Assembly: GCA_964511075.1 (NCBI GenBank)
Contig: CAZEDM010000010.1
Location: forward strand, 25,507-89,506
Source: an uncultured Ignavibacteria bacterium
GTDB lineage: Bacteria > Zixibacteria > MSB-5A5 > RBG-16-43-9
Direction of reading: 5' to 3'
Length of the DNA: 64,000 bases
Part shown: positions 18,813-38,748 of the stretch, in pieces
Layout: each line of letters begins with the position of its first letter
How positions within the stretch are numbered: position 1 is the stretch's first letter
Notes under the pieces: generated by a model
Told to the model about the DNA's origin: nothing
Databases searched by the model: none
The model's input: the letters and a program-made list of their open reading frames with translations, nothing else
Made by a program: the position numbers and the translations under genes

Positions 18813-18834
18813 AAATCTTTTTTTTAAAGGAGTG

Positions 18835-20142: not shown

Positions 20143-20176
20143 GTAACTTTAGAAACTTATTTAAGGAGATATTACT

Positions 20177-21409: not shown

Positions 21410-21410
21410 A

Positions 21411-22091
21411 TTGCTGATTAAAACCGAGAATCTCTGGAAGGTGTATGAGATCGGGGCTGAAAAAGTACAGGCCCTGAGAGGCGTAGATATGGGTGTGGAG
21501 AAGGGGGAGTATCTTGCCATAATGGGTCCTTCCGGCTCTGGGAAATCAACCCTGATGAACCTGATCGGGTGTCTGGATACGCCCACAGAAGGGAAATACT
21601 ATCTCAATAATAGATTAGTGAGCGAGATGAATGACGACGAGCTGGCCTTTATCAGAAATAAGGAGATCGGGTTTGTGTTCCAGACTTTCAACCTTCTGCC
21701 CCGTGCTACTTCCCTGCATAATGTGGAGCTTCCTTTGATCTATAACGGGACCGAATCGAAAGAAAGGATTGAAAGGGCAAGAAAAGCCTTACATATAGTG
21801 GATCTGGAGGACAGGATGACCCATAAGCCGAACGAGCTTTCCGGAGGGGAAAGACAGAGGGTAGCAATAGCCCGGGCCATTGTAAACAATCCCTCGCTCA
21901 TCCTGGCAGACGAGCCCACTGGCAACCTGGATACTGCCACCGGATTAGAGATAATGAAACTTTTTGACCGGCTTCATTCTGAGGGGAATACTATAATCAT
22001 AGTTACGCATGAGCTGGATATCGCCAGATATGCAGACCGGGTCGTGCATATCAGGGATGGGATGGTCGAGAAAGAGGAAAAATTTAGATAG
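21411..22091 (+). CDS. MacB/LolD-type ABC transporter ATP-binding protein
   Basis: TTG start. Walker [10 protein letters not shown], signature [14 protein letters not shown] and Walker [12 protein letters not shown]. Confidence 0.9.
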
Positions 22092-22143
22092 ATTAATTTT
22101 TTTTGCCGGGAGAGAAAAGTTGCAGTTTTTAGAGAGTGTAGGA

Positions 22144-23337: not shown

Positions 23338-23500
23338 GGAACAAAAGACAGAAGATGGAAAATAAAAGATTAGAGATTAAAGGGGGAATATTGCTTGTTT
23401 TCGGTCTCCTGACTAACAGCATTCTCTTCGTGGGTGAAAGGAGAGCAACGAAGAGCGGGATCAGAGATAAAAGATAAAAAAGAAAGAACATCTTGTAATT

Positions 23501-24751: not shown

Positions 24752-24807
24752 AAAGATTTGACCAAACATAAGCACGGGGCTTAGAGTAATTATAATCGGA
24801 ATCGAGG

Positions 24808-26157
24808 ATGAATTTTATTATGGATATTTCTGAAGGATTTAATTATAATGGAAATATGAAAAGGATGATCATATTTATAGTTTTGGCTTTTCTGTTGTCT
24901 TTAAATTCTTATTCTTTCTCTCAAACCGACTTCGGATATCAGGAGGATTTGGAGAAGGAGGGGTTCTTCTTAGACTATGCCTATTTCAAGGGAAGCGGAA
25001 AAGATGACTGGAGGTTAGAAGTTTATTACAGGATCTTCAATCACAAGCTGACCTTTGTCAAGGACGAAGAGAGATTCAGAGCTAGCTACGAGATCGAGAT
25101 AGCGCTCTTCAGTAAAAATAAACAGTTCACCGCCAGCTCTCATGAGGAGGAATATATAGTTGAGACCTATCAGGAGACTCAATCCACTGAGAATTTTTTA
25201 ATCAATCAGCTCAATCTCTACCTCCCGGAAGGTGACTATAAGCTAAGAGTAAAGTTGATCGACCATAATTCCAATCAGGTATCACAACTGGAGAAACAGA
25301 TTTACCTTCCCTCTCGGGAAACACACAAGATAATCTTCAGTGGCCTGGAGCTGGCTCGCAGCGTCAAGGAAGATGTGGACTCCTCCAAATTCAGCAAAAG
25401 AGGTAAAGAGGTCATACCCAGCGTTTCGGCCTTTTTCGGCGACCCGCAGAATTTCCTCTGGGTTTATCTGGAGCTCTATAATCTGAAGCTCTCGGGGACC
25501 TTGGATTATCTCTTGCTCTATGAGCTGGAAGCGGTCAATAAATCTATAGTTTTTAAGGATACCTCTGAAACCACGCTTATGCCTTCGGCTGACGAGGTCT
25601 TCTATGAATTCAAGAAAATCCAGATAGAAAATATACCTGGGGGCTCGTATACGCTTCGGGTTAGACTGACAGATAAACGGGGCAGGGAGATAGCCAAGGT
25701 TCATAAAGATCTGAATATCGTGTGGTCCTTACTTTATCAGGTGAAGACCGAATACCTTAAGGCAGTGGATCTTTTGCGATATGTGGCTAATAGCAAGGAA
25801 CTGGAGGAGTTGAAAGAGGCAAAAGAAGGAGAGAGGGTGACTAAATGGCTAGAGTTCTGGAAATCCAAAGATCCCACCCCGGATACACCGGAGAATGAGT
25901 TAAGGGATGAGTATTATAAAAGGGTGAGATACGCTAATCAGCACTTCCGCATCTATGATAAGGAAGGGTACAAGACCGACATGGGGATGGTCTATATAAA
26001 GTTCGGTCCACCAGATGAGATTGACAGACACCCTTTTGAGCTTTCCAGCCGTGCCTATCAGATCTGGTATTATTACCGCCTCAATCGCAGGTTCTTATTC
26101 GTCGATGTAACTGGTTACGGAGAATATGAGCTACAGTATCCTTATGATGGAAGGTGA
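24808..26157 (+). CDS. GWxTD domain protein (secreted)
   Basis: C-terminal EGYKTDMGMVYIKFGPPDEIDRHPF matches the GWxTD motif block. Signal peptide present; a likelier start is the internal MKRMIIFIV. Confidence 0.6.
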   Translation: MNFIMDISEGFNYNGNMKRMIIFIVLAFLLSLNSYSFSQTDFGYQEDLEKEGFFLDYAYFKGSGKDDWRLEVYYRIFNHKLTFVKDEERFRASYEIEIALFSKNKQFTASSHEEEYIVETYQETQSTENFLINQLNLYLPEGDYKLRVKLIDHNSNQVSQLEKQIYLPSRETHKIIFSGLELARSVKEDVDSSKFSKRGKEVIPSVSAFFGDPQNFLWVYLELYNLKLSGTLDYLLLYELEAVNKSIVFKDTSETTLMPSADEVFYEFKKIQIENIPGGSYTLRVRLTDKRGREIAKVHKDLNIVWSLLYQVKTEYLKAVDLLRYVANSKELEELKEAKEGERVTKWLEFWKSKDPTPDTPENELRDEYYKRVRYANQHFRIYDKEGYKTDMGMVYIKFGPPDEIDRHPFELSSRAYQIWYYYRLNRRFLFVDVTGYGEYELQYPYDGR

Positions 26158-26220
26158 TAAAAATGGGCTTAAAAGCATTTATATCCTTTTATATTCAACC
26201 TTTTTAAGGAGGTATAAATA

Positions 26221-27633
26221 ATGGGAAATGGCTTAAAACAAATACTGGTATTAATCTCCCTATTATCGGTTTTTTTCCTCCTTTTATTCTGGTCTGTAGA
26301 TTCATTCGCTTTTCCCACCGATTCTCTCAAGTTAGATCTGGATTACTCGGTTTTTAAATATCTCCCAGATATAGACAAGAGCTATTTGGAGATATATTAT
26401 TCCCTGAAACAAAAGGAGCTGGATTACATCCAGCAGGTTGAGGGATTCGGAACAATAGTTTCCTTGGAGTTAAGCTTGAAGGATCAGGAAGGCAAGGAAG
26501 CCAAGGAGAAGGAATGGAAAGTAGGAAGCCTGGTTCAGGACGCAGAAAAGGCCAAGATCTCTGATGCTCAGATGATAGACATTCTGGGAGATACCATAAA
26601 GCCGGGAGTCTACTCTTTAGAGCTAAAAGTGATTGATCTCAATTCCAATAGGGTGGGGGTGAAAAAAACTGAAGTCACAGTTCCGGATTTCCGAGGTGAG
26701 TCCTTACAGATGAGCGATATGGAGCTGGCTTTAAACCTGTCAGAAGAGGATACCGCAGAAGTGAAATTCAACAAATCCGGAATCAGGGTTTTGCCTAATC
26801 CCGGAAGGGAGTATATTTCAAAGGAAGGGATGCTCTATCTGTATGCGGAGATCTATAATCTCCAATTCAGCCAGGAAGGAGAGAAAAAAGGGTATTCCCT
26901 GAATTTTTCCGTATTGGATTCAGCTGGTTCAAATCCCAAGGACTATGGTACCCAGATAAATGCCAAGCCGGGTAACACAGCCGTGGTTATGAACGCCCTG
27001 AATATCGGCTCCCTTGCCCCCGGTAAATATCAATTGAGGATTTTAGCCAGAGACCTTGATTCAGGGGAGGAGGTCGAAAGGATAAAGCCTTTTAAGGTGG
27101 GAACCAGAGCAGCAGGGGAGATAACTGAGGGACCTCTAACTGAGAAGGAAGCGAAAGATTTGAGAAATATGCTCTCCTACATTGGCACCAGGGATGAATT
27201 GAACATGTACGATCAACTTAATTTAGCTGGCAAGAAACAGTTTATGGTTGAGTTCTGGAAGAGAAATGACCCTGATCCTTTAACGCCGGAGAATGAATTT
27301 AAGATCGAGTATTACAGAAGGTGGGAGGAGGCTAAACGTAAATACTCCTCCAACAGAGTGGAAAAGGATGGCTGGAGAACCGATATGGGAAGGGTCTATA
27401 TTATCTACGGGGAACCAGATGACATTGAAAGACATCCTTATTCTATAACTTCCAAATCCTGGGAGAGATGGAACTACGATCATATCCAGGGAGGGGTCTA
27501 TTTTATCTTCATAGATGATGCAGGCTTCGGGGTTTATAAGCTGATTCACTCCACGGCTAAAGGAGAGATCAAGGACTCTCGGTGGCAGGAGAGGGTTGAT
27601 ACGGAGGGGGCAAGTGAGATCTCGGATTATTAA
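26221..27633 (+). CDS. GWxTD domain protein (secreted, paralogue)
   Basis: C-terminal DGWRTDMGRVYIIYGEPDDIERHPY is an exact GWxTD motif. Signal peptide present; RBS aaggaggt. Confidence 0.7.
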   Translation: MGNGLKQILVLISLLSVFFLLLFWSVDSFAFPTDSLKLDLDYSVFKYLPDIDKSYLEIYYSLKQKELDYIQQVEGFGTIVSLELSLKDQEGKEAKEKEWKVGSLVQDAEKAKISDAQMIDILGDTIKPGVYSLELKVIDLNSNRVGVKKTEVTVPDFRGESLQMSDMELALNLSEEDTAEVKFNKSGIRVLPNPGREYISKEGMLYLYAEIYNLQFSQEGEKKGYSLNFSVLDSAGSNPKDYGTQINAKPGNTAVVMNALNIGSLAPGKYQLRILARDLDSGEEVERIKPFKVGTRAAGEITEGPLTEKEAKDLRNMLSYIGTRDELNMYDQLNLAGKKQFMVEFWKRNDPDPLTPENEFKIEYYRRWEEAKRKYSSNRVEKDGWRTDMGRVYIIYGEPDDIERHPYSITSKSWERWNYDHIQGGVYFIFIDDAGFGVYKLIHSTAKGEIKDSRWQERVDTEGASEISDY

Positions 27634-27671
27634 GGGTAAAAAGGCTTCTGGATTTCATCGGTTCCCTTTAG

Positions 27672-28415
27672 ATGATAAAGACCTTCGATATAAGTAAGAT
27701 CTTTCTGGACAAAAAGAGAGGGAAGATAGTAGCGGTCGATGAGGTTACTATAGAATGCAAACCCGGGAAGATCTTTGGGCTTTTAGGCTTGAACGGCGCA
27801 GGCAAGACCACGCTGATGCGTCTTCTTTCCACAGTTTTAAAACCAACTTCCGGCACGGCTCAGGTAGCTGGCTTTGACATCCTTCAAGAGCCTCAAAAGG
27901 TGAAATCTAATATCGGGTTCCTATCCTCTGATACTGCCCTTTACCCCAGATTAACCGCAGAGGAGACCGTTACCTATTTTGCCAGATTGAACGGAATGGA
28001 GGAGAAGCTCATACAGGAGAGGAAGGAAAAACTCTTCAGGATCTTCGATATGGATTGGTACAGGGACAGACGGGTAGATAAACTTTCCTCCGGTATGAAG
28101 CAGAAAGTCTCTTTAGCCCGCACCGTGGTTCATGACCCGAAGGTGCTGATCTTAGATGAGCCCACCCTGGGACTGGATGTAATCACCTCCAGAAATATCA
28201 TACAATTCATACGTAAAGCCAAAGAGGAGAACAAATGCATCCTGTTTTCTACCCATATAATGCACGAGGCAGAGAAGCTCTGTGATGAAATCGCCATCAT
28301 CCATAGGGGAAGGATATTGACAGTTGGCACCCTGGAAGAGCTACGACACAAAGCCGGGCTGGAGGATTTAGACGAGGTCTTTGTTAAATTCATAGGGAGG
28401 GAAAATGAATCTTAA
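27672..28415 (+). CDS. ABC transporter ATP-binding protein (ABC-2/NatA-like)
   Basis: Walker A GLNGAGKTT, signature LSSGMKQKV and Walker B LILDEPTLGLD. Confidence 0.9.
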   Translation: MIKTFDISKIFLDKKRGKIVAVDEVTIECKPGKIFGLLGLNGAGKTTLMRLLSTVLKPTSGTAQVAGFDILQEPQKVKSNIGFLSSDTALYPRLTAEETVTYFARLNGMEEKLIQERKEKLFRIFDMDWYRDRRVDKLSSGMKQKVSLARTVVHDPKVLILDEPTLGLDVITSRNIIQFIRKAKEENKCILFSTHIMHEAEKLCDEIAIIHRGRILTVGTLEELRHKAGLEDLDEVFVKFIGRENES

Positions 28416-29598
28416 GAAAATAAGGATAATCTACCTAAAGGAGATGAAGGATACCTTAAGGGATAGACGAACTCTTATCTCTATGCTCTTGGTTCCTATT
28501 TTCCTCTTTCCTGTTTTGATTTTTGGGATGACTTCCTTAACTATGAAGATGGCCAAAAAAACTGCGGAAAGGGTTAGTCCCATAGCAGTTATAGGCGAAG
28601 AGGAAGCACCCGTACTCTTCTCCCTGCTCAAGGAAAACAGGTCTTTTACCATAGTCAGCCAAGAGGACTTCAGATTAGCCCTGAAGGAGAAAGAGATTGC
28701 CGCAGCAATAGAGTTCTCCAAGGGTTTTGAGGAAAAGATCAATGCTGGAGAATCTGCCCAGGCTCAGATCTACTATGATGCCGCTGAGATCAGATCAGAT
28801 ATGACCTCTGACAAGTTAGTAAATATCCTGGATGCTTACCAGGAGAGTGTCGTCACCCAGAGGTTAAAGATAAAGAATGTGGATAAGTCTTTGCTTCATC
28901 CGGTAGAAATTCAGAAAGAAAACCTTGCCCCCAAGGAGAAGATGGGAGGATACTTCCTCTCCATGTTTTTACCCTATCTGATTATGATTATGGCCTTGAC
29001 CGGAGCGATGTATCCAGCCATCGATTTAACTGCCGGTGAAAAAGAAAGGGGCACCATGGAGACTCTACTGGTGTCTCCAGCTACTCGGGCTGAGATCACC
29101 TCAGGTAAACTTTTAGCTGTTTTCACTGCCTCCCTTATCACCGCTATGGTATCAACAGCCAGTATGGTTATCAGTGCCGGTAGCGGTTTTGGCAGATTTG
29201 AGAAAATGGGTGAGAATGCGATTTTCTCCATCAATCCCCTTTCCATTTTAATCCTGCTTATACTTATGATCCCCTACTGCTGTCTGGCAAGCTCGGTTTT
29301 GCTCTCCTTAGCCCTTTTCGCAAAATCCTACAAGGAAGCCCAAAGCTACATTTCGCCTCTGCTGATAATCATCATTCTGCCGGCTATGGGTTCTTTTCTG
29401 CCAGGGCTGGAATTATCAGTGGGTATGGCTTTCATCCCGGTGATAAACATAAGCCTGACTTTAAAAGAGGTTCTCCTGGGAACATACAGTTGGGGGTATA
29501 TAGGGCTGATCTTCTTAAGCACCGTATTATATGCCGGGCTGGCGATTTTTATCACCCAACGGCTTTTCAAAAAAGAACAGGTTCTTTTCCGGACATAG
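28405..29598 (+). CDS. ABC-2 family transporter permease (NatB-like)
   Basis: N-terminal TM, a roughly 150-aa external loop, then five TM helices. It overlaps the ATPase by 11 nt. Confidence 0.75.
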   Translation: MNLKKIRIIYLKEMKDTLRDRRTLISMLLVPIFLFPVLIFGMTSLTMKMAKKTAERVSPIAVIGEEEAPVLFSLLKENRSFTIVSQEDFRLALKEKEIAAAIEFSKGFEEKINAGESAQAQIYYDAAEIRSDMTSDKLVNILDAYQESVVTQRLKIKNVDKSLLHPVEIQKENLAPKEKMGGYFLSMFLPYLIMIMALTGAMYPAIDLTAGEKERGTMETLLVSPATRAEITSGKLLAVFTASLITAMVSTASMVISAGSGFGRFEKMGENAIFSINPLSILILLILMIPYCCLASSVLLSLALFAKSYKEAQSYISPLLIIIILPAMGSFLPGLELSVGMAFIPVINISLTLKEVLLGTYSWGYIGLIFLSTVLYAGLAIFITQRLFKKEQVLFRT

Positions 29599-29821: not shown

Positions 29822-30613
29822 TTATTCTTTAAAAACCCAGGTCCCTTCGGCTCTGATTCTCTCATCCTCAATCTGTTGAAAAATCAATTTCAAAGATTTC
29901 ACCCTTTTAGACAGGACAGGATTATTTAAGAAATCTCGCTTGGGAAAACAGAGCATCAGGTTCTTCTGATGGGTTTCCCACTCTGGTTTTCTATCCTCAG
30001 AGTGTAATTGCGGGAATCTTTCCCCTGCCTTTCGAGAAAGGGCTGGAGTTTCGTTTTCTTCCTCCAGAATTTGCAGTGGTTCATACTGATTCCCAGCATC
30101 GTCTTCGATAAAGATGATCCAACGGCTGGGGTCCAGATAGAGTTCTGACCAGGAAGTCTGTAATTTGCACCAGATAAGGAGATGGCTTTCAACCTCGTAA
30201 CGCTGAAAATAGGAGGTACGAAACCTTCTTTCCTCCTCAGGGGTCATATTAATCAAGACAGCGTAGTATTCTAACCCAGCTTCAATAAGCAGGGTATCCA
30301 TCAAAGTAGCATTAATCAGAATAGGGAATTGATTTTCTCCACCATCTCGATCCGTACCCTCAAACATATTGAGAGGGTTGAGTAATTGCAGAGGCGCTCC
30401 ACTCCTTGCAACCGCTCCGAACTGCACTGTCCATTTCTCCCACAATTTGGGGAAAAATTCCTCTGTCCGGACAGAGCTTTTTGAATCTAAAGAAGTGTCC
30501 ACATATTTTTTGGAAGAAGGCACGGCAGCACAGGAACTCAATACAGAGAAGGAAAAAACGATATCACAAAGAAACAATATGTACCACCGTGCCTTAAGCT
30601 TACAGGACTCCAT
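29822..30613 (-). CDS. lipoprotein, hypothetical
   Basis: Signal plus lipobox-like VLSSC in a 263-aa ORF. It is the last gene of the long minus-strand block. Confidence 0.5.
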   Translation of the reverse strand: MESCKLKARWYILFLCDIVFSFSVLSSCAAVPSSKKYVDTSLDSKSSVRTEEFFPKLWEKWTVQFGAVARSGAPLQLLNPLNMFEGTDRDGGENQFPILINATLMDTLLIEAGLEYYAVLINMTPEEERRFRTSYFQRYEVESHLLIWCKLQTSWSELYLDPSRWIIFIEDDAGNQYEPLQILEEENETPALSRKAGERFPQLHSEDRKPEWETHQKNLMLCFPKRDFLNNPVLSKRVKSLKLIFQQIEDERIRAEGTWVFKE

Positions 30614-30625
30614 GCGTAATTTCTC

Positions 30626-31498
30626 CTATTCGGCTGGAGGAGAAGCCAGTTGAGTTTCTATCCAAAGCTCCTGCTTTTCAGGTTTTTTCATAACAGGACC
30701 ACCCTTACCACCACCAGGAGGACCCCCACCCATGCCACCTCCAGCGGGACCACCGCCCATACCACCACCAGGAGGCATCATCCCTCCACCACCCATCTGT
30801 TTTTTCATATTCCCTCGATCGCCCAGATTAAGTTCTCCCCACTCCAATCCAAGACAGATCTTCTGTCCTGGCTGGGCATTGATGGCATAATCGAAGGTCT
30901 CACTTCTCTGTAATGGAATCTTGAATTCATAGGTATAAACACCCTGAAGAGAGTCAAAGCTGACTGCCGGGCCTGAAGAACCACCGGTGGGAATGGGTAT
31001 CTCCTGATTGCTTTTCTTGTAGATAACCATGAGTTGCTCAGCCATCGACTCCTGTTTCAGCCTGAGGCGCTCCTTCTGTTCCGGTGTGAGGTTATCCAGA
31101 AATCCACCTTGGCCTTCCATCCCGGATTTTTGCATATCGAAAGGAGGGGGCCCTCCCTTATAGCGGATTCCGAAATCTTTTTTCTCTTTCCCTGAGTTAT
31201 CCAGCCATAAGGTCACACCACCCATACTAATAAGACGTGCCCATTCCTGATTACTGAAACGGAAAAGAACATAAAGGTTTTCGCTGTTGTTACGCAGACC
31301 CAGCTGCACGCCACTTTTCTCCAGATAGTTGGTGGGTTTGCCGATCCATTCCGTCATCTGGCCATCTATTTGCACCGGCTCGTCTGACCAGTAGGTCTGG
31401 ACTTTCTCTTTCCCGCAGCCGGCTAAAAAGACTATACAGAAGAGTGTTGATAGCAGCAGTGTTTTTCCATTCGCCAGCTTAAAACTATGTTTGACCAT
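30626..31498 (-). CDS. lipoprotein with Met/Gly/Pro-rich C-terminal low-complexity tail
   Basis: Lipobox LAGCGKE. The tail reads MGGGGMMPPGGGMGGGPAGGGMGGGPPGGGKGGPVM, encoded at about 30682-30802. Confidence 0.55.
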   Translation of the reverse strand: MVKHSFKLANGKTLLLSTLFCIVFLAGCGKEKVQTYWSDEPVQIDGQMTEWIGKPTNYLEKSGVQLGLRNNSENLYVLFRFSNQEWARLISMGGVTLWLDNSGKEKKDFGIRYKGGPPPFDMQKSGMEGQGGFLDNLTPEQKERLRLKQESMAEQLMVIYKKSNQEIPIPTGGSSGPAVSFDSLQGVYTYEFKIPLQRSETFDYAINAQPGQKICLGLEWGELNLGDRGNMKKQMGGGGMMPPGGGMGGGPAGGGMGGGPPGGGKGGPVMKKPEKQELWIETQLASPPAE

Positions 31499-31590
31499 TT
31501 TTACCTCATGTATAATTGGTTAGAGAGCTGAGGTTAAGAAGTATTTCCTAACCTCAGCCTGATGAGAGATACAAAGGGAGAGGGCCTCGC

Positions 31591-32526
31591 TCATTTGAGA
31601 AAAACCATGCGGTTGGTTACAGAATAAGCTCCTGCTTCAATGCGATAAAAATAGATTCCGCTGGCTACCTTTACTCCGGTTTTATCTCTACCATCCCAGA
31701 TTACCCCTCTGCTGCCTGCGTTCTGGTACTCGTCCACTAACTGCTTTACTTTTTGACCCTGGATATTATAGATGGTGAGCTTGACCCGGGAATCCTCAGG
31801 CAGGTTGTAGGCGATCTCGGTCTCAGGATTAAAGGGATTAGGATAGTTCCATGCTTCGATAGTCTCGGCAGCAGACGTTTTTTTGGATCCAGCATTTTCG
31901 GTGTTCTCAGTTGATAGAACACCATATCCTTCCACTATCCCATCGACTACAACTTTTATCTCCTGGCGGGAAGCACCTTGGTCCCTCATTTTCTTGATCT
32001 TCTCCATGACAGCTTCCCTTTGCTCATCAGTCAGCTTGGATAGGAAGGGTGGTCCGAAACCACCTGGACCACCAGGGCCCGGGTGTTCAGGCGGTTCGAT
32101 CCCAAATCCTTCAAGCATTTTATCCACTTCAGCTTTAATTTCCTTTGGGGAGGCATTCTGGCTTTGCAGCTCCTTCATTTTCTCCTGAATAGCTTCTCTC
32201 TGCTCATCTGTCAATTTGCCCAACAAGTCACTCGGAAGCCCAAAGCCCCTATGTCTATTCGCTCCTTCTGGTTTTTCCGGCACTTCGACTCCATACCCTT
32301 CAAGCATTTTATCCACTTCAGCTTTAATTTCCTTTGGGGAGGCATTCTGGCTTTGCAGCTCCTTTACCTCCTCCTGAATAGCTTCTCTCTGCTCATCTGT
32401 CAGGCCGGATAAGAAGCCTTTTCCATCAGGGGCCTGAGGAAACTGGGCAGAAATTGCCTCCCAGGGATGCATAATTATAAGGGCTAAAAGGACCAGAATC
32501 CCGATGGATATTTTATGCGCTTTCAT
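31591..32526 (-). CDS. secreted protein with three LTXXQ (Spy/CpxP-like) repeats and a T9SS C-terminal sorting domain
   Basis: Signal peptide, then three roughly 57-aa repeats (LTDEQREAIQE.[MV]KELQSQNASPKEIKAEVDKMLEG). The C-terminus (...KLTIYNIQGQKV.QLVD...SGIYFYRIEAGAYSVTNRMVFLK) matches the Por/T9SS CTD. Confidence 0.7.
   Translation of the reverse strand: MKAHKISIGILVLLALIIMHPWEAISAQFPQAPDGKGFLSGLTDEQREAIQEEVKELQSQNASPKEIKAEVDKMLEGYGVEVPEKPEGANRHRGFGLPSDLLGKLTDEQREAIQEKMKELQSQNASPKEIKAEVDKMLEGFGIEPPEHPGPGGPGGFGPPFLSKLTDEQREAVMEKIKKMRDQGASRQEIKVVVDGIVEGYGVLSTENTENAGSKKTSAAETIEAWNYPNPFNPETEIAYNLPEDSRVKLTIYNIQGQKVKQLVDEYQNAGSRGVIWDGRDKTGVKVASGIYFYRIEAGAYSVTNRMVFLK
32085..32400. repeat. near-identical ~125-nt direct repeat (period ~177 nt) inside the LTXXQ/T9SS gene
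   Basis: Sequence at 32100-32225 is nearly identical to 32275-32400 (ttcaagcattttatccacttcagctttaatttcctttggggaggcattctggctttgcagctcc...). Confidence 0.8.
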
Positions 32527-32771
32527 TGCGAGCTCCTCTCTGTTGAAATCATCTTCTTCAGATTTCTCAGCTCATTATAGAACTGAACGAACTGGCTGTT
32601 GATGAATTCCACCTTCAGCTGATCGATATCCCCCTCCACCTCAAAGGTGAAAATACTCTTTGATTTTTTTTGATCTGATCTGATGAGAGGATAGCCCTTT
32701 ATTTTCAGATAGGCTGAAAATGCCAGGTCATCCGTGGTGATGTGATTATTCCTGATCTTATCCGATTTCAT
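32523..32771 (-). CDS. small hypothetical protein (82 aa)
   Basis: ORF in operon context. It overlaps the downstream gene by 4 nt and starts 3 nt after the upstream stop. Confidence 0.4.
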   Translation of the reverse strand: MKSDKIRNNHITTDDLAFSAYLKIKGYPLIRSDQKKSKSIFTFEVEGDIDQLKVEFINSQFVQFYNELRNLKKMISTERSSQ

Positions 32772-32773
32772 GA

Positions 32774-33295
32774 TTATTTTCTGTCCTCCAGTCTTTTTTT
32801 AAACGGTTTCTCCCTTGCTCCCTTTCCAGGCATGCCCTCCATTCTCATGGGGTTAGCTCTTTCCTTGAAAAAGGTGAAGAATTTCTTCTGCTGCTCCGGG
32901 GTCAAGAATGACTTTTCCTCTAACATATGCATAATTGCCTTTTTCTGCAGCTCAGTCTGAAGGCTGCCAATCTCCTCGGAAAGCGTATTAACTTTATCCA
33001 TATTCGGTTGCTCAACTGAAAGTTCGTTCATAAGCTTGGTTCTCTTAGCTCTGAGGGAATCAAAAATCGGCTCCATTTCCCCTCTGATCTTCCTGAAGTG
33101 GGCTTCAAATTTTTTCACCTGCTCCTCATTTAAATCCAGCTCCTGCTTGATAAAACCCACCGGCGTATCAGCTCGCACCGGGGGTGGGGGGAAGGGTTTT
33201 CTGGGATAAAATCGGTGATAGGCGATGGTTACCAGTGCGGTAACATTGATAAGGGTTAAGACTATTAGAAACAGAATAAGTAAATTCTTCTTCAT
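32774..33295 (-). CDS. periplasmic LTXXQ-motif protein (Spy/CpxP/ZraP-like 'heavy-metal sensor' family)
   Basis: TM/signal followed by LNEEQVKKF, LSVEQ and LTPEQQKKF motifs, in a 173-aa ORF. It lies immediately downstream of the anti-sigma gene. Confidence 0.6.
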   Translation of the reverse strand: MKKNLLILFLIVLTLINVTALVTIAYHRFYPRKPFPPPPVRADTPVGFIKQELDLNEEQVKKFEAHFRKIRGEMEPIFDSLRAKRTKLMNELSVEQPNMDKVNTLSEEIGSLQTELQKKAIMHMLEEKSFLTPEQQKKFFTFFKERANPMRMEGMPGKGAREKPFKKRLEDRK

Positions 33296-33304
33296 CCTTA
33301 CCTC

Positions 33305-33799
33305 CTATTCTCCCGAGATCATATTCAAATAGGTGGCTTCAATGGAACCGCTGGGTAAATCGGAGAGGGGGTTGACATAGTGAGAATCGACAAACTGTTT
33401 TAAAGCTGTGGTGCGGTTATTTAGCTGGGATACTGCCTGCCCATTTATCGAAGGTAGATTCCCCAGGGAATAGCCCAGCAGAATACAAACCCCTAAAACT
33501 GCAACTGCAAGTACGGGACGAGCCCAGCCTGAGACCCTCCCTATACCACCTACCACGGGATTTTTCCCTTCTTCATAATCGATGATCCTCTGGTTAAGTC
33601 TTGTCCAGAAATAAGGAGGGGGCTGAATTCTCTCTTTGTCTTTAAGGATATTCCACAGGAGGAAAAATTCCTTTAGCAGACGGGAGCATTCATGACAGAT
33701 CTTAAGGTGTTTTTCCATTTGCACCAGCTGATCTTCTGGCAGTTTCTTCTCCAAAAAGAAAAGAAAATTGGCTCTGACATTTTTACAGTTCATTTTCAC
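33305..33799 (-). CDS. zinc-binding (ZAS-type) anti-sigma factor
   Basis: The N-terminus has C5-x25-H31-x3-C-x2-C (HLKICHEC), matching the ZAS C/H-x23-26-H-x3-C-x2-C motif. A single TM (VLAVAVLGVCILLGY) and a short periplasmic tail follow. Confidence 0.6.
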   Translation of the reverse strand: MKMNCKNVRANFLFFLEKKLPEDQLVQMEKHLKICHECSRLLKEFFLLWNILKDKERIQPPPYFWTRLNQRIIDYEEGKNPVVGGIGRVSGWARPVLAVAVLGVCILLGYSLGNLPSINGQAVSQLNNRTTALKQFVDSHYVNPLSDLPSGSIEATYLNMISGE

Positions 33800-33865
33800 T
33801 GATCTCCGCTTCAGTATTAAGACACAGATTCTGACAAAAACTTGCGATTTTTTCTCATATTCTTT

Positions 33866-35821
33866 TTACTCATACCTCAGGGCATCAATAGGGTTCAAAA
33901 GTGAGGCCTTGCGTGCCGGGTAGAATCCAAAGAAAAGTCCCACCGCCAGGGCAAAAGAGAAAGACAGAGCCACGGAAACAGGAGTGATCACCGTCTCCCA
34001 TCCGCCGAATTTGCTCATGAGGTTGCTGACCGATATCCCTAAGAAGATGCCGATTATCCCGCCGCTCAGCGATACGATGATAGCCTCGATAAGAAACTGG
34101 CTCAGGATATCGCGTCTCTGTGCACCAATGGCCTTGCGGATACCTATTTCCCTGGTCCTCTCAGTAACGGATACGAACATTATGTTCATAATGCCGATTC
34201 CTCCCACGATAAGGCTTACCGCTGCTATACCGGCAAGTAGCATAGTAAAAGTATTACTGGTTTCCTGCACGGTAGTGAGAATATCGGCCTGGGACATAAT
34301 ATTGAAGTCATCTTCATCGCCTGATTTGAGCCTGTGCCTTTCACGCAAGATGGAGGTGATTTCAGCTTCGGCTTTGTCCATAACCTTTTCAGACTTTGCC
34401 TTCACATTGATAATCGAAACATAATCCACCCCAAATAACCGTTTCTGCGCAGTTTTCAGAGGAATAAAGATGACATCATCTTCATCCCTGAATCCGCTGC
34501 CTCCTTTTTCGCTCATTACGCCGATAACCTGAAAACTGCTGCGCTTTATCTTTATATACTCTCCGATGGGGTCTTTTTCTCCGAAGAGCTCTTCAACTAC
34601 TGTTTTCCCCAGGACGGCTACCCGCCGCATCAGGCGATTATCCTCCTCAGTCAAAAAAGTTCCCTGTTCCACTGGAAAATTTCTCACATCTGGATAGTTT
34701 GGTGTCACTCCATTTATCCCGGTATTGGTGTTTTCATTTCCGTAAACTGCCTGAGCATTTCTGGAAAAATTTGCATCAGTTTTCTCCACGGAAGGGCATT
34801 CCTCAGCTATAGCCTGAGCATCTTCATATACCAAAGAGGTAACGCTTCCGCTGGCTGAACGGGTAGGTCCTCTTTGAAATGCACCAGAACGCACCATCAG
34901 AAGATTTGCTCCCAGCTGACTGATACGCTTAGTAATCTGAGCCCCGGCCCCTTGGCCTATGGCTATCATCGCAATTACTGCTCCAACTCCCACGATGATT
35001 CCCAGCATGGTCAAAAAACTGCGAAGTTTATTGGAGAAGATGGAAGATATGGCCATGGTTAAGCTTTCTATTATTTCAGCCAGAGAGAACCGTCTCTTTT
35101 TCTTCTGACTTCCTGCGGACATATAAGTCAGGCTAACCTCTTTCACATCTGTTGTCCTCTGGTCTTCCACGATCTGGCCATCTTTTAAGCGAATGATCCT
35201 TTGAGCATGGGAGGCTACCGAGTCGTCGTGCGTTATCAGGACTATGGTAATGCCCTTATTATGCAGTTCTTTAAGGATGGACATTATCTCCTGGCCGGAT
35301 CTGGAATCGAGATTACCCGTGGGCTCATCAGCCAGGATTATGGAAGGCTGGTTCACCAGAGCACGGGCTATGGCAACTCTCTGCTGTTGACCTCCGGATA
35401 ATTCTCTGGGGCGGTGATGAGCCCTGTCCTCAAGATTCACCGAGCGCAGGGCGTTAAGCGCCATCTCTTTTCGTTTCCTATGGTCACCCGCATATATGAG
35501 AGGAAGCTCCACATTGGACAGAGCGGTCAAACGAGGAAGAAGATTGAAAGTCTGAAAAACAAAGCCTATATTCTCATTTCTTATATAGGCAAGCCGGGAT
35601 TCGGAGAACTTGCTTACATTTATGCCATCAAATAGGAATTCACCATCGGTGGGAATATCCAGACAGCCCAGGATATTCAGGAGAGTGGACTTGCCCGATC
35701 CCGAAGGTCCCATTATAGCGATAAACTCGCCATCCTCTATTTTCAGGCTTATGTCCTTCAAAGCCGGGACCTCCACAGTCCCCATCTGGTAGATTTTGCT
35801 TATATTTTTTAACTCTATCAT
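33866..35821 (-). CDS. macB: MacB-type fused ABC transporter ATP-binding/permease protein
   Basis: An N-terminal ATPase domain ([34 protein letters not shown]) is fused to a periplasmic domain and an FtsX TM bundle. 651 aa. Confidence 0.9.
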   Translation of the reverse strand: MIELKNISKIYQMGTVEVPALKDISLKIEDGEFIAIMGPSGSGKSTLLNILGCLDIPTDGEFLFDGINVSKFSESRLAYIRNENIGFVFQTFNLLPRLTALSNVELPLIYAGDHRKRKEMALNALRSVNLEDRAHHRPRELSGGQQQRVAIARALVNQPSIILADEPTGNLDSRSGQEIMSILKELHNKGITIVLITHDDSVASHAQRIIRLKDGQIVEDQRTTDVKEVSLTYMSAGSQKKKRRFSLAEIIESLTMAISSIFSNKLRSFLTMLGIIVGVGAVIAMIAIGQGAGAQITKRISQLGANLLMVRSGAFQRGPTRSASGSVTSLVYEDAQAIAEECPSVEKTDANFSRNAQAVYGNENTNTGINGVTPNYPDVRNFPVEQGTFLTEEDNRLMRRVAVLGKTVVEELFGEKDPIGEYIKIKRSSFQVIGVMSEKGGSGFRDEDDVIFIPLKTAQKRLFGVDYVSIINVKAKSEKVMDKAEAEITSILRERHRLKSGDEDDFNIMSQADILTTVQETSNTFTMLLAGIAAVSLIVGGIGIMNIMFVSVTERTREIGIRKAIGAQRRDILSQFLIEAIIVSLSGGIIGIFLGISVSNLMSKFGGWETVITPVSVALSFSFALAVGLFFGFYPARKASLLNPIDALRYE

Positions 35822-36813
35822 CTCGGTCCCCTCATCATACCCGGCATTGATGGCCTGAAGTTATCTTTCTTCTTCTGGGTATTTTCCGTACTGCCTGTTA
35901 CTATTATGTTGTCACCTTCCTTCAGACCTTCGATCACCTCAATTAACTTTCCATCCGTGATACCGGTTTTGATCTTTCTGGGTATGGGCCTGTCCGTTAA
36001 TAACATAACCAAACTCATATCATCTACTTCCTTTACTGCATTTTTAGGTATCACCAGCACACTATCTTTCTTTGCTGTTATAAATTCCACGTTGGCTGTC
36101 ATTCCAGAGGCCCAATAGCGTGGAACTTTCTGGGGTTCCACCATCACCTCGTATTCCACCACATCCGAAACCAGATCGCCCTCGCGTGAGATCTTGGTGA
36201 CCTTTCCATTCAATTCTTCATCCGGAAAGGCATCCAGCGTAATCCTGGTCTTTTGTCCCAATTGGATCTTGCCTATATCTGCCTCATCCACTTCCACGGT
36301 TGCCACAAGCCTGTCTGCAATTACGAAGAGAACGCTGGCAGTGGAGACATTCTGTCCCGGCTCACAGGAGCGATCTATTACCTCCCCGGATATCGAATTG
36401 GTGAGAGGCACCGACTTGTAGGCTTTATCTGCGATCTCATAAGCCATCTCCGCCTCTTTTATAGTCTCAGAATCATTTTGCCTTTGCGCAGATTCCAGAC
36501 CCGAGCGCGCCGCATCCAGGAGTGAAATCCTATCCTCGCTTGAGATCCAGGCAAGGATATCCCCTTTCTTGACTTTGTCTCCCTCATCCACCAGAACTTT
36601 GTCTATCCTTCCGCTGACAGACGGGCTTACCTCGACCCTGGTGTAGGGCTCGATGGTGCCGGTGGAAAGAACTTTAATCTCTATGTTGCCTCTTTCTACC
36701 CTGGTTGTCTGATAAGTAGGCTGAGTTGAATTTTTGTCATTCCTTTTTTTAAAATAAAACAGTCCAGCCAGAACGATGATTATAAATATGATTCCTATTA
36801 TTAACTTTTTCAT
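35818..36813 (-). CDS. macA: efflux periplasmic adaptor subunit (MacA-like)
   Basis: TM anchor plus lipoyl hairpin. It overlaps macB by 4 nt. Confidence 0.8.
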   Translation of the reverse strand: MKKLIIGIIFIIIVLAGLFYFKKRNDKNSTQPTYQTTRVERGNIEIKVLSTGTIEPYTRVEVSPSVSGRIDKVLVDEGDKVKKGDILAWISSEDRISLLDAARSGLESAQRQNDSETIKEAEMAYEIADKAYKSVPLTNSISGEVIDRSCEPGQNVSTASVLFVIADRLVATVEVDEADIGKIQLGQKTRITLDAFPDEELNGKVTKISREGDLVSDVVEYEVMVEPQKVPRYWASGMTANVEFITAKKDSVLVIPKNAVKEVDDMSLVMLLTDRPIPRKIKTGITDGKLIEVIEGLKEGDNIIVTGSTENTQKKKDNFRPSMPGMMRGPR

Positions 36814-38072
36814 TAGCTCCTCCTTCCCCAGACGTTTTCTAATCTGGCGATAGCTACCCGCAGATTATATAAGGCATTGACCTGTTTATTCTCTGCGCTG
36901 GTAAGATCGCTTTCTTTCTGTTGCAGGAAAAAATAAGATGTCAGCCCTTGCTCGTACTGAAGCTTGGTCAGCTGGTACATCTCACGGGAAGCCTGCAAAG
37001 TTTTACTATTTACCTCGATTATTTTCTCTGCAAGTTCCCAGTTTGAATAAGCCTGCTCAATCTCCTCCTCTATTTGCTGCTCCAGCTCAACAATTTTCGC
37101 ATCCTGTTCTGTAAGTGAGAGAGTGGCCTCTTTGACCTTTGCTTTTCTGGAGAAACCATCAAAGAGAGGTAAGGATAAGCTTAATCCCGCACTCCACCCT
37201 CCTCCTTCCAGGTTTAGTAAGTCGCTACCCTGCCATCCATAGGAGGAGGATAATGAGACAGATGGATAATAGTCGCTTTTAGCCTGGGTAACCTGTAATT
37301 TCAACACTTCCTTGTTAATCCTTTGGTAGCGTATATCCGACCTTTCGGTTTTCGCCTGTTCAATTATACTATTAAGAGAGGGAAAACTTATGCTTTCGTC
37401 TGCATAGCTTATGGATAATTCTGCCCTTCTGGGTCTGCCCAGAAGCAGATTAAGCTCTATCTTAGCCAAGGTCAATTCATCTTCTGCCTGCTTCTTGTCA
37501 TATTCTGCCTGGGATAGACTAGCCTCGGATTCCTTTACCGCGGGAGAGCTTTCTCTGCCTGCATCGTATTTCAATTTGATAAACACAAGGTCTTCCTTTC
37601 GTCTTTTCAGGACGTCCTCAGCCAGTGCAATCTGTTCCTGCTTCAATAGGATTTTAAAAAAAGCCTCCTTTACCGAGAGGATCAGGTCCTCCTCCCCTTG
37701 ATGATAATTCTCCTCAGCTATCTCAACTTTAGCTTTAGCAATCTTTATACCTGCGCGAATACTTCCTCCTTGGTAAAAGGGATAGGAAAGCCCTAGGCTG
37801 GCTGAATAGCTGTTTGTTCTTTCCCCGGATGAACCTTCGTTATTCCGGTATGAACTGGAAAGATTCAGGCTGGGATAATAGGAAGAATAAGCGGAAGTCA
37901 CACCCACCTGGGATTTTTCAATTGCAGTTTTTAGCTGAACCAGTTTAGGGTTATTCTCTTTTGCCAGGTAGATGCATTCCTGGAGGGTTAAAGGCTGCTG
38001 GGCAAAAGAACTGGTATTTAGAACCGACAAAAAGAAGATAAATAGAAAGTGGCGATGGAATTTAACAGTCAT
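36813..38072 (-). CDS. TolC-family outer membrane protein
   Basis: Signal peptide and duplicated TolC repeats. Its stop overlaps the macA start. Confidence 0.8.
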   Translation of the reverse strand: MTVKFHRHFLFIFFLSVLNTSSFAQQPLTLQECIYLAKENNPKLVQLKTAIEKSQVGVTSAYSSYYPSLNLSSSYRNNEGSSGERTNSYSASLGLSYPFYQGGSIRAGIKIAKAKVEIAEENYHQGEEDLILSVKEAFFKILLKQEQIALAEDVLKRRKEDLVFIKLKYDAGRESSPAVKESEASLSQAEYDKKQAEDELTLAKIELNLLLGRPRRAELSISYADESISFPSLNSIIEQAKTERSDIRYQRINKEVLKLQVTQAKSDYYPSVSLSSSYGWQGSDLLNLEGGGWSAGLSLSLPLFDGFSRKAKVKEATLSLTEQDAKIVELEQQIEEEIEQAYSNWELAEKIIEVNSKTLQASREMYQLTKLQYEQGLTSYFFLQQKESDLTSAENKQVNALYNLRVAIARLENVWGRRS

Positions 38073-38172
38073 CTTGTCTCCTTATTTTTTTCAGATTATT
38101 TAGAATTCACTTCCTAAAACTCCTTTCTTCAAGCATATGACACATGCTTTTTATCAAACTTGCGGCTCGAGC

Positions 38173-38748
38173 TCATTTTTCTTTCAGGAGATGAATCAAA
38201 TTTTTCTGCAGGTTTGTTTTTGCACGGTGGATAAGGGATTCGATGGAAGAAAGGGATTTATGTAGAACTTTGGCGATTTCCTGGTAAGACAGCCCTTCGT
38301 ACTGGTGAAGGACGAAGGCTGCTTTTTGCTTTGCAGGCAGGGAATCGATCGCTTCCCGTATGAGTATATCCTGTTCCTTTCTTTCCAGCGCCTTATCCGG
38401 CCGCTCCGAGTCTGAAGTCTGTAGCCCGGTAACCTGTTGACGCTCTCCCTCCAATAAAGAGCTCAGACTCTTAAGCCAGGAGGGCCTCTTTTTGTCGCGG
38501 ATGAAGTTCAGAGAACGATTTACCGCAATACGGTAAAGCCAGGTGGAGACTTTAGCTTCACCCCGGAAATTTTCAGCAGCTTTATATACCTGAAAAAATA
38601 CCTCCTGAGATACATCCTCAGCATCCTGTTTATTGCCAATCAGGTTGTAGCAGGTGTTAAGGACCAGCACCTGATATTTCTCAACCAGTGCTCTGAAGGC
38701 ACCATGGTCTTTTGCTGAGATCCTCCGTATTAGTTCGGCATCATTCAT
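38173..38748 (-). CDS. ECF-type RNA polymerase sigma-70 family factor
   Basis: Region 2 (VSQEVFFQVYKAAENFRGEAKVSTWLYRIAVNRSLNFIR) and region 4 (LSYQEIAKVLHKSLSSIESLIHRAKTNL). Confidence 0.85.
   Translation of the reverse strand: MNDAELIRRISAKDHGAFRALVEKYQVLVLNTCYNLIGNKQDAEDVSQEVFFQVYKAAENFRGEAKVSTWLYRIAVNRSLNFIRDKKRPSWLKSLSSLLEGERQQVTGLQTSDSERPDKALERKEQDILIREAIDSLPAKQKAAFVLHQYEGLSYQEIAKVLHKSLSSIESLIHRAKTNLQKNLIHLLKEK

Follow-up and report, generated by a model that had tools for sequence, protein, structure and literature searches.

A sigma factor gene cluster of Zixibacteria-like bacteria that encodes a putative T9SS-delivered array of helical hairpins

Spy, CpxP, ZraP and CnrX belong to a family of extracytoplasmic proteins of about 100 amino acids that contain two LTxxQ motifs and fold as a four-helix hooked hairpin. 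The CnrYXH module of Cupriavidus metallidurans combines an ECF sigma factor, a small single-pass anti-sigma factor and a membrane-anchored sensor with the LTXXQ fold, and lies beside an RND-type tripartite efflux system. T9SS type-A cargo proteins, including RgpB, NucA and RemA, combine a Sec signal at the N-terminus with a C-terminal domain (CTD) of about 80 amino acids that adopts a seven-strand Ig-like beta-sandwich fold (PMC11285876). For other FCB phyla, the presence of T9SS has been reported as a possibility (PMC11285876).

We identified a gene for a protein with a signal peptide, three helical repeats and a CTD (hereafter, the repeat protein) in the 64-kb window, by which we mean the whole stretch of DNA that was analysed (Table 1). 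The original prediction regarded a T9SS-tagged LTXXQ-type protein as an odd exception. The combination of repeats and CTD is instead typical of a conserved family that is encoded in a conserved operon. We assign a probability of roughly 45% to the reading that the sigma factor controls the repeat gene and that its product, a member of an undescribed family, is delivered by T9SS to act as a multivalent binding protein, either at the surface or after release.

Table 1. Features of the gene cluster, with positions in the window.
Feature	Position	Strand	Details
Second conserved lipoprotein, p263	29822..30613	(-)	Last gene of the cluster
Lipoprotein, lipo290	30626..31498	(-)	Own GGFxxxLTPEQ element; Gly/Met-rich tail
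Stem-loop, 15 bp	31526..31559	(-)	Directly after the repeat-gene stop codon; centroid -23 kcal/mol, z -3.3
Repeat-protein CDS	31591..32526	(-)	311 aa plus stop codon; from the ORF list
T9SS type-A C-terminal sorting domain (predicted)	31594..31845	(-)	aa 228-311; 7-strand Ig-like sandwich; ends ...NRMVFLK
Repeat unit 3	31894..32052	(-)	aa 159-211; helices 160-164, 167-182, 187-200; divergent copy
Repeat unit 2	32074..32232	(-)	aa 99-151; helices 99-102, 107-122, 127-140; core DNA 90% identical to unit 1
Repeat unit 1	32263..32421	(-)	aa 36-88; helices 38-41, 44-59, 64-77
Sec signal peptide (predicted)	32446..32526	(-)	aa 1-27, MKAHKISIGILVLLALIIMHPWEAISA followed by Q; read from sequence, cleavage site inferred
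DUF5659 protein	32523..32771	(-)	82 aa, no signal peptide; PF18903, 43 bits (cutoff 23.6)
Membrane-anchored LTXXQ / Metal_resist protein (CnrX-like)	32774..33295	(-)	PF13801, 53.9 bits (cutoff 29.2); PF07813, 37.3 bits
Putative anti-sigma factor	33305..33799	(-)	zf-HC2 N-terminus, one TM; PF13490, 21.3 bits (cutoff 22.2)
Tripartite efflux pump, MacAB-TolC-type	33866..38072	(-)	Conserved beside the cluster in most loci
Fused MacB-type ABC ATPase-permease of pump	33866-35821	(-)	
Membrane-fusion protein of pump	35818-36813	(-)	
OEP of pump	36813-38072	(-)	
ECF-type sigma factor	38173..38748	(-)	Sigma70_r2, 71 bits; Sigma70_r4_2, 67 bits

An NCBI-derived protein collection contains an entry that is 100% identical to the repeat protein (P0001). 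By inspection, the N-terminus has the features of a Sec signal peptide: a basic n-region and a hydrophobic core of 14 residues, then AISA before the Q at the predicted cleavage site. The signal peptides of homologues align with it, and their A/G/S-Q sequence coincides with this site. AF2 models residues 6-27 as a helix with low pLDDT.

As claimed for this ORF, the signal peptide is followed by three repeats that each carry LTDEQREA. The proposed repeat length of about 57 amino acids did not match the period, as LTDEQ begins at residues 42, 105 and 165 (spacing of 63 and 60 amino acids). A block thought to be conserved in every repeat is common to repeats 1 and 2 (SPKEIKAEVDKMLEG), while repeat 3 carries SRQEIKVVVDGIVEG in its place. 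Each unit is a helix-turn-helix hairpin of about 40 amino acids with a single LTxxQ motif, modelled by AF2 as helices of 4, 16 and 14 residues (pLDDT 80-94). The linkers between hairpins are about 20 amino acids long, Gly/Pro/Arg-rich and disordered (pLDDT below 50). This architecture of Sec signal, hairpin array and T9SS type-A CTD is well supported.

A direct repeat search of the DNA identified three copies of 133 nt at 31901, 32081 and 32270, which correspond to protein repeats 3, 2 and 1, respectively. The copies of repeats 1 and 2 are 90% identical, and the copy of repeat 3 is 65% identical to the reference copy at 32081. Without a mismatch, repeats match over at most 68 nt (offset 189 nt). 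The proposed recent duplication of repeats 1 and 2 is supported. Tandem Repeats Finder called no tandem repeat in the repeat-gene interval. Assembly artefact is an unlikely source of the repeats, because the exact repeat is just 68 nt long and homologues contain 2-8 copies.

The predicted sorting signal at the C-terminus was borne out by profiles and by modelling. Residues 228-308 of 311 score above the cutoffs of TIGR04183 (39.0 bits, cutoff 23), PF18962 (29.6 bits, cutoff 27) and PF13860 (38.6 bits, cutoff 27), with FlgD_ig scoring higher than Por_Secre_tail. The AF2 model has seven strands over residues 224-309 (pLDDT 83-96, mostly above 90). Foldseek matched this domain to PorU (6za2), PorZ (5m11) and the CTDs of RgpB (7pq4), NucA (8glk_D, TMt 0.66) and RemA (8gl6_D, TMt 0.67). 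As in T9SS type-A cargo, PNPFNP occurs close to the start of the domain, and the C-terminal end is basic. By profile, extreme C-terminal position and predicted fold, and with its N-terminal Sec signal, the repeat protein thus resembles T9SS type-A cargo and would probably be exported by this route. It differs from described cargo in that the passenger is a novel helical-hairpin array rather than an enzyme or adhesin domain and in that the host is Zixibacteria-like, a lineage for which T9SS is undocumented in the literature searched. No open-access paper connecting Zixibacteria with T9SS, and nothing joining LTXXQ with T9SS, was found in this search. No T9SS component was matched among the part of the window ORFs that was profile-scanned, and the 64-kb window contains no second CTD-bearing ORF.

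A word-indexed protein search identified 26 clusters of the repeat family. An exhaustive profile search without the CTD yielded 898 representatives when the E limit was set to <=1e-3 (237 when set to <=1e-30), a family size of about 900 when counted as clusters at 50% identity. Family members contain 2-8 units per protein, and most carry a CTD. About 10% end in a different tail and some lack a tail, implying that surface delivery is not universal in the family. The alternative tail ([ST]WGxIKxxF[KR]) matches no NCBIfam model. The repeat defines an undescribed and uncharacterised family that is found mainly in Zixibacteria-like bacteria. Among relatives of PurB, those with a name are Zixibacteria, and the PurB on the contig that carries P0190 is 89% identical.

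The consensus of the unit is LT(D/E)EQR..(V/L)..K(I/V).E(M/L)R..GA(S/T)(R/P)EEI(H/R).AV.E(M/L)L..(W/Y)GIE. Units have a mean net charge of -2.7 and the G/P/R-rich linkers one of +0.9. The closest relative of 169 of 502 units lies within the same protein, a pattern that suggests recurrent recent duplication in the family. We found no residue pattern in the family that indicates a binding partner: the conserved His alternates with Arg and Met with Leu, and there is no Cys. Searches of PHROGs and PADLOC gave no phage or defence relation.

The stop codon of the DUF5659 gene overlaps the ATG of the repeat gene (ATGA), and the two genes are translationally coupled. A canonical LTXXQ gene had been placed next to the repeat gene. 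The LTXXQ gene is genuine, though the DUF5659 gene lies in between. Its CnrX-like product contains an N-terminal TM segment, and the profile of this protein matches structures of a VirG-like protein, NccX, Spy, CnrX and ZraP across the domain. NCBIfam anti-sigma models score below threshold for the putative anti-sigma factor, which is conserved in position and synteny. With a predicted sigma factor that contains regions 2 and 4, a small single-pass putative anti-sigma factor, a membrane-anchored putative sensor of the LTXXQ fold and a tripartite efflux system, the cluster resembles CnrYXH. It differs from CnrYXH modules in gene order, in the MacB-ABC type of its pump and in the additional conserved genes for DUF5659, the repeat protein and two lipoproteins. 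The lipoproteins lipo290 and p263 belong to no Pfam or NCBIfam family. PDB sequence searches with lipo290, p263 and DUF5659 returned low-complexity or insignificant matches alone, and a literature search returned nothing on DUF5659.

We collected related loci with a 14-unit alignment of the repeat and compared them with the proteins of the cluster and a CTD model. The operon, found in nearly all of the 17 contexts examined (mostly Zixibacteria-like MAGs), is headed by the ECF sigma factor and also encodes the anti-sigma factor, the CnrX-like LTXXQ protein, usually the pump, DUF5659 and the repeat protein, followed by the hairpin and the two lipoproteins. The same gene order is present in 16 related loci. 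DUF5659 is immediately upstream of the repeat gene wherever upstream DNA is present, except in two loci (L013 and L019). The lipo290 gene lies directly 3' of the repeat gene in 12 loci. The p263 gene is present in six. In L002, L003, L008, L011 and L012 it comes right after lipo290, and in L004 it lies about 4.7 kb downstream. In distant members the sigma factor, two small proteins and the repeat gene are still kept, as is DUF5659 where it is present; one distant member, from Armatimonadota, lacks the conserved operon.

A GC-rich hairpin occupies the same position after the repeat gene in 13 of 13 related loci and is mostly followed by a T-run. We read this hairpin as a terminator or attenuator, or as an mRNA-stabilising hairpin. 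Alignment of the regions upstream of the sigma genes revealed no clear shared ECF promoter, a scan for sigma-70 and terminator consensus sequences remained at background level, and neither Rfam nor tRNA scans returned a hit in the window.

Several of these features can be joined in a possible mechanism, in which the ECF sigma factor would regulate the repeat gene. Envelope stress sensed by the CnrX-like/anti-sigma pair would free the sigma factor, leading to transcription of the operon, and the hairpin after the repeat gene would raise the yield of repeat protein relative to the downstream lipoproteins. Sec would carry the repeat protein through the inner membrane, and T9SS would carry it through the outer one. 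On the cell surface, or after being shed from it, the acidic amphipathic hairpins would form a flexible string that may capture and buffer, independently of ATP, either the stressor or envelope proteins that are damaged. A function as holdase or sponge is suggested by analogy and genomic context.

If this reading is correct, the repeat would be a new domain family, absent from Pfam and NCBIfam, and its gene would be the conserved output of an ECF sigma module of Zixibacteria and of allied candidate phyla of the FCB group. The finding would extend likely T9SS use to this lineage, and would offer a case in which an LTXXQ-like helix was trimmed to the smallest hairpin, amplified in number and exported from the cell. 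The cluster would also provide a testable handle on the envelope-stress biology of an uncultured phylum, consisting of one operon, a sigma factor and an abundant secreted product.

The original prediction assigned the repeats to Spy/CpxP-type LTXXQ chaperone or metal-binding modules, making the protein a polyvalent LTXXQ chaperone sent to the surface. We consider this reading unlikely. The repeat protein shares with Spy, CpxP, ZraP and CnrX an extracytoplasmic location, an LTxxQ helix N-cap motif after a Gly-rich segment and a short 'GF..' helix, and an amphipathic helix, turn and second helix; like CnrX, it is encoded with an ECF sigma/anti-sigma pair. PF13801 is matched by 21 of 21 aligned family members at E<=0.01, one whole unit aligns with residues 7-52 of Spy (E 0.13), and a JGI record names one homologue a 'Spy/CpxP family protein refolding chaperone'. 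The genuine LTXXQ gene two genes upstream is also a possible donor for a partial duplication.

However, the profile check proposed for the repeats gave sub-threshold scores: 16.9 bits for PF07813 (cutoff 24.3), 23.8 bits for PF13801 (cutoff 29.2) and 13 bits for the NCBIfam Spy model (cutoff 174). Some homologues exceed the whole-protein cutoff of PF13801 (31-47 bits), solely by summing partial matches of which no single stretch is significant; all of the best stretches fall within roughly the first 80 of 125 profile positions. Comparison of the repeat profile with the LTXXQ profile of the neighbouring protein by hhalign aligned 19 columns at 21% probability. Against structures, the repeat profile ranks designed helical proteins, troponin C, ribosomal S13 and ABA-1 before Spy, and 4-OT scores as well as or better than Spy with the unit profile. 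Family proteins also match NPA, DUF3106, DUF1002, GA and WHEP models. These matches suggest a generic signal of helix N-cap and amphipathic helix.

Nor did structure prediction bring the repeats closer to Spy/CpxP hairpins: AF2 models isolated two-helix hairpins rather than a dimeric four-helix cradle, and a Foldseek search of PDB with the repeat-only model gave a best E of 0.7 and no Spy, CpxP, CnrX or ZraP. In contrast to that family, the units are about 40 amino acids long with one motif, match just the N-terminal half of the model and form a tandem array with disordered linkers, and the CTD argues against periplasmic residence. The repeat protein shows neither a profile score above the cutoffs, nor the two-motif four-helix domain, nor the significant similarity to solved members that would mark the LTXXQ family. 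At best, each hairpin resembles the first LTXXQ helix and turn of the Spy/CpxP/CnrX domain rather than a complete LTXXQ domain, and may descend from this part.

A broader proposal, which we regard as quite unlikely, is that the operon constitutes a three-compartment envelope-stress system of LTXXQ-type helices. Here, the system would comprise a CnrX-like inner-membrane sensor, a lipoprotein with a single LTPEQ element and a T9SS-exported array of half-LTXXQ hairpins. The repeat protein would carry the Spy/CpxP-type principle of an ATP-independent chaperone or buffer to the surface or outside the cell. It would have arisen when part of an LTXXQ gene was duplicated and the repeat then expanded recurrently in Zixibacteria, a phylum without documented T9SS.

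It is distinctly improbable, in our view, that the protein is a structural or adhesive surface repeat protein, an FCB-group analogue of protein A and GA-module proteins that binds a specific macromolecular ligand in an incidental sigma context. The layout is the same, with tandem helical modules of about 60 amino acids, whose copy number varies, between a signal peptide and a C-terminal sorting signal; the sorting systems differ. Variable copy number with recurrent homogenisation occurs in many surface repeat proteins, and the terminator-like hairpin is consistent with high expression. Profile matches to protein A domains and the GA module are weak, and the local match of the protein A 'LNEEQR' helix to the repeat profile belongs to a similarity confined to the N-cap helix. 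The hairpins here have two helices rather than forming three-helix bundles. The sigma context is unlikely to be incidental, because the ECF sigma/anti-sigma linkage persists in distant members. Were the repeat protein a plain structural coat protein, the result would be an annotation improvement only.

The repeat protein could also be an extracellular metal-ion buffer, like SilE or PcoE, within a CnrYXH-like metal-resistance determinant. The sigma/anti-sigma/CnrX-like triad beside an efflux pump parallels the cnrYXH-cnrCBA arrangement. The units are acidic, many homologues contain linker His (about 0.75 per linker) and EEIH in the unit, and the adjacent lipo290 has a Gly/Met-rich tail. We nevertheless find a metal-buffering role very doubtful, since the ligand positions vary (Arg or Lys replaces the conserved His in half of the units, and Met and Leu alternate at the conserved Met positions, as expected for core residues) and the mature repeat protein contains 2 His and no Cys. 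The pump is also of the MacB type, not the RND/CzcA type.

Finally, we give very little credence to a polyprotein precursor cut in its linkers into peptides of about 60 amino acids, as in nematode polyprotein allergens, and exported by the MacB pump or T9SS: the beads-on-a-string layout with disordered linkers, weak matches to the ABA-1 polyprotein unit and the presence of a MacB-type pump (a known type of peptide exporter) would fit, but the linkers vary in sequence and length without a conserved cleavage motif, the cluster has no conserved protease, and the Sec signal and CTD already make a full export route.

Proteins of the Pfam family DUF3106 likewise contain repeated L(S/T)PEQR-type helices, and their profile (PF11304) is weakly matched by 16 of 21 repeat-family members, with the repeat protein of the window below threshold (18.8 bits, cutoff 24.3). 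DUF3106 proteins differ in lacking a CTD and are also uncharacterised. In Betaproteobacteria, DUF3106 genes adjoin ECF sigma/anti-sigma pairs.

We identified the 311-aa repeat protein as a predicted T9SS cargo whose passenger repeat is undescribed, encoded within an undescribed but conserved sigma-factor operon. The protein consists of a typical signal peptide (MKAHKISIGILVLLALIIMHPWEAISA, then Q), three LTDEQREA(I/V) repeats, and a C-terminal domain, an anatomy that the original prediction had correct save for small details: the repeats are spaced 63 and 60 aa apart rather than ~57. Gln follows the predicted cleavage site in the window protein and in ~11 of 17 aligned homologues (alignment A1); the ‘Q-rule’ is described as specific to Bacteroidetes and as not covering the whole FCB group (PMC5837995).

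The C-terminal ~84 residues score above cutoff on TIGR04183 (39 bits vs 23), PF18962 (29.6 vs 27), and PF13860 (38.6 vs 27). An AlphaFold2 model built from a 21-sequence family alignment predicts a seven-strand beta-sandwich at residues 224–309 (pLDDT mostly >90), and the described T9SS sorting domain (CTD) is a 3+4 seven-strand Ig sandwich (PMC11285876). All Foldseek matches of the full-length model in the PDB are confined to this domain and include the CTDs of PorU (6za2), PorZ (5m11), and RgpB (7pq4), the translocon-bound NucA and RemA CTDs (8glk_D and 8gl6_D, target TM 0.66–0.67), and FlgD Ig domains. Sequence profiles and predicted fold thus both support the proposed Por/T9SS sorting signal and agree with type-A cargo, which is among the closest known counterparts of the protein together with the LTXXQ family, CnrYXH modules, and Gram-positive tandem helical surface modules. 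We found no other CTD-bearing ORF in the 64-kb window and no match to a T9SS component among the window ORFs that were profile-scanned.

Each passenger unit is predicted to comprise a 4-residue helix, a 16-residue helix, a tight GAS turn, and a 14-residue helix (pLDDT 80–94 in full-length and repeat-only models). Linkers between units fall below pLDDT 50 and the model pTM is 0.34, suggesting that the passenger is arranged as beads on a string. These units had been described as Spy/CpxP-like LTXXQ repeats, and only part of that likeness survives. The repeat protein is below cutoff on PF07813 (16.9 vs 24.3) and PF13801 (23.8 vs 29.2). All 21 aligned family members match PF13801 at E ≤ 0.01, several at 31–47 bits, with no single stretch significant and the best stretches within about the first 80 of 125 profile positions; these members also match NPA/ABA-1, DUF3106, DUF1002, GA, and WHEP. 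A 41-unit profile searched against all PDB sequences retrieved de novo designed helical proteins, the troponin C N-helix, protein A, S13, and ABA-1, and none of the 60 matches listed is Spy, CpxP, ZraP, or CnrX. A three-repeat profile did retrieve Spy, at no better than E 0.13; the alignment pairs one unit with Spy residues 7–52. By hhalign, the unit shares 19 columns around LTPEQ with the profile of the neighbouring LTXXQ gene (probability 21%); that gene's own profile matches a VirG-like protein, NccX, Spy, CnrX, and ZraP across the domain. The predicted unit structure did not bear out a Spy/CpxP fold either: the best Foldseek match of the repeat-only model is no better than E 0.7.

From the profile, hhalign, and Foldseek tests we conclude that the unit's likeness to the Spy/CnrX domain extends no further than the first LTXXQ helix and the turn after it. 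The unit may derive from this segment. It is not a member domain of the LTXXQ family, and the LTxEQ motif itself acts like a generic helix N-cap. We consider it unlikely that the protein is a true polyvalent Spy-type chaperone, a reading that would have to accommodate the failed family cutoffs. A protein-A-like surface binding protein unrelated to stress would suit the protein A match and the likeness to Gram-positive tandem helical surface modules, which is architectural only. It would leave the operon's stress-type regulators aside, and seems less probable still.

The repeat unit is described by no Pfam or NCBIfam model. A passenger-only word-indexed search returned 26 clusters from MAGs of Zixibacteria, Latescibacteria, Armatimonadota, and Neomarinimicrobiota, and an exhaustive profile search without the CTD returned 898 representatives at E ≤ 1e-3 (540 at E ≤ 1e-10, 237 at E ≤ 1e-30). 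Family members carry 2 to ~8 units with the consensus LT(D/E)EQR..(V/L)..K(I/V).E(M/L)R..GA(S/T)(R/P)EEI(H/R).AV.E(M/L)L..(W/Y)GIE. Units are acidic (mean net charge -2.7), and linkers are Gly/Pro/Arg-rich (mean 19 aa, mean charge +0.9). Such acidity could suit a metal sponge, but the positions that could serve as ligands are variable and the window protein contains two His and no Cys, making this reading improbable. Flexible linkers might also join the products of a cleaved polyprotein, which is very improbable.

A 133-nt segment of the repeat gene occurs in three DNA copies. As predicted, two are near-identical: the copies encoding repeats 1 and 2 show 90% identity, with an uninterrupted exact match of 68 nt, and the third is 65% identical to the repeat-2 copy. 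For 169 of 502 units across the family, the closest relative is another unit of the same protein, and a pair with at least 90% identity is present in 27 of 159 proteins. The window pair is therefore a family habit of repeated duplication or homogenisation rather than a sign of misassembly, which is unlikely. In some homologues an additional half-motif is nested in the last unit (LTEEQREIIRNLTDEQREAV): the start of the LTxEQ helix is partly duplicated, in frame and over 11 aa, which illustrates ongoing repeat remodelling.

When a strict PNPFN match is required for the T9SS CTD, about half of sampled members (78/176) qualify, and further members have CTD-like ...MVLLK ends. In about one-tenth of the family, a short ‘[ST]WGxIKxxF[KR]’ tail replaces the CTD (P0016, P0017, P0020, P0084, P0094, P0112, and others, with one example from an Eisenbacteria MAG). 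This tail matches no NCBIfam model and may be an undescribed sorting signal. The remaining sampled members have neither ending, and some are truncated fragments. One ‘CTD-less’ homologue (P0003, 266 aa) is followed by a separate 116-aa ORF with a Por_Secre_tail domain, so the missing CTD probably reflects a frameshift or an error in sequencing rather than real architecture.

The repeat gene lies in a conserved operon headed by a triad of sigma factor, putative anti-sigma factor, and CnrX-like protein, with every gene on the minus strand and small gaps. It is translationally coupled to DUF5659, whose stop codon overlaps its ATG (ATGA). A neighbouring LTXXQ gene exists as proposed but is not directly adjacent, because DUF5659 lies between. 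The same gene set recurs in related loci from Zixibacteria, ‘Ignavibacteria’, Gemmatimonadota, and Eisenbacteria MAGs; its tight core comprises DUF5659, the repeat gene, and the 290-aa lipoprotein gene (lipo290), and in some cases the pump is displaced or another takes its place. An ECF sigma factor and two small proteins still precede the repeat gene in two distant members, of which one lacks a CTD and the other has the alternative tail; this is not so for an Armatimonadota member. CnrYXH modules are a context analogue, although the operon's pump is of a different class. Two relatives encode a large secreted protein immediately upstream of the sigma gene (a CTD-bearing 799-aa protein in L004 and, on the P0003 contig, an S8 peptidase encoded by a Peptidase_S8/BACON gene), and this protein may also belong to the regulon. 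For PurB in the window, the named relatives belong to Zixibacteria.

Coordinates of features in the window and in related loci (L-numbers)
Feature	Coordinates	Strand
Operon	29822-38748	-
Gene 1, ECF sigma factor		-
Gene 2, outer-membrane efflux protein		-
Gene 3, membrane-fusion protein		-
Gene 4, fused MacB-type ABC transporter		-
Gene 5, putative zf-HC2 anti-sigma factor		-
Gene 6, TM-anchored Metal_resist/LTXXQ protein		-
Gene 7, DUF5659		-
Gene 8, repeat protein	31591-32526	-
Signal peptide of repeat protein	32446-32526	-
Stem-loop	31526-31559	-
Gene 9, lipo290	30626-31498	-
Gene 10, 263-aa lipoprotein (p263)		-
H+-pyrophosphatase	15497-17848	+
Second efflux-type cluster	18787-29598	+
GWxTD-domain protein	24808-26157	+
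GWxTD-domain protein	26221-27633	+
247-aa ORF, then 397-aa ORF	27672-29598	+
OmpA-family protein	40674-42194	-
P0003 homologue	L002 1138-2302	
Upstream 799-aa protein	L004 4531-6927	
Nested half-motif homologues	L009 1-732; L011 3871-5451; L012 1925-3094	
Alternative-tail member	L013 9806-10567	

A 15-bp stem-loop directly follows the repeat gene's stop codon (z -3.3), and a GC-rich hairpin, mostly followed by a T-run, occupies this position in 13 of 13 related loci. The conserved hairpin is likely a partial terminator/attenuator or mRNA stabiliser; it looks like a device that would raise the repeat gene's output relative to the lipoproteins, setting gene dosage in the operon. No family in Pfam or NCBIfam matches lipo290, which also lies downstream of the repeat gene in L001–L016. 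Its beta-rich domain contains, as an insertion, a conserved ‘GGFxxxLTPEQ(K/Q)xRL’ element of its own; the protein further has a tail rich in Gly, Met, and Pro (GGGMMPPGGGMGGGPAGGGMGGG) and the motif ‘PEKQELWVKTxLAxPP’, which is conserved at the C-terminus.

We tentatively propose (probability roughly 0.45) that the operon is the regulon of its sigma factor and that Sec followed by T9SS exports the repeat protein. Outside the outer membrane this flexible, acidic, amphipathic protein would bind multivalently, as a holdase or sponge, in response to whatever stress the CnrX-like sensor reports. Most of the uncertainty concerns this biochemical role. In the literature searched, DUF5659 is not mentioned by any paper, nor is T9SS in combination with either Zixibacteria or LTXXQ. 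The result is a solid annotation and a source of hypotheses, and overturns nothing.

A second cluster of efflux type runs convergently towards the operon and includes an OEP, an HlyD-type fusion protein, two MacB_PCD/FtsX permeases, and two GWxTD-domain proteins. Translations alone assign ABC-ATPase motifs to its 247-aa ORF and a hydrophobic character to the 397-aa ORF that follows. The OmpA-family protein (an N-terminal beta-barrel plus thrombospondin type-3 repeat) and the H+-pyrophosphatase are both ordinary and provide lineage context only.
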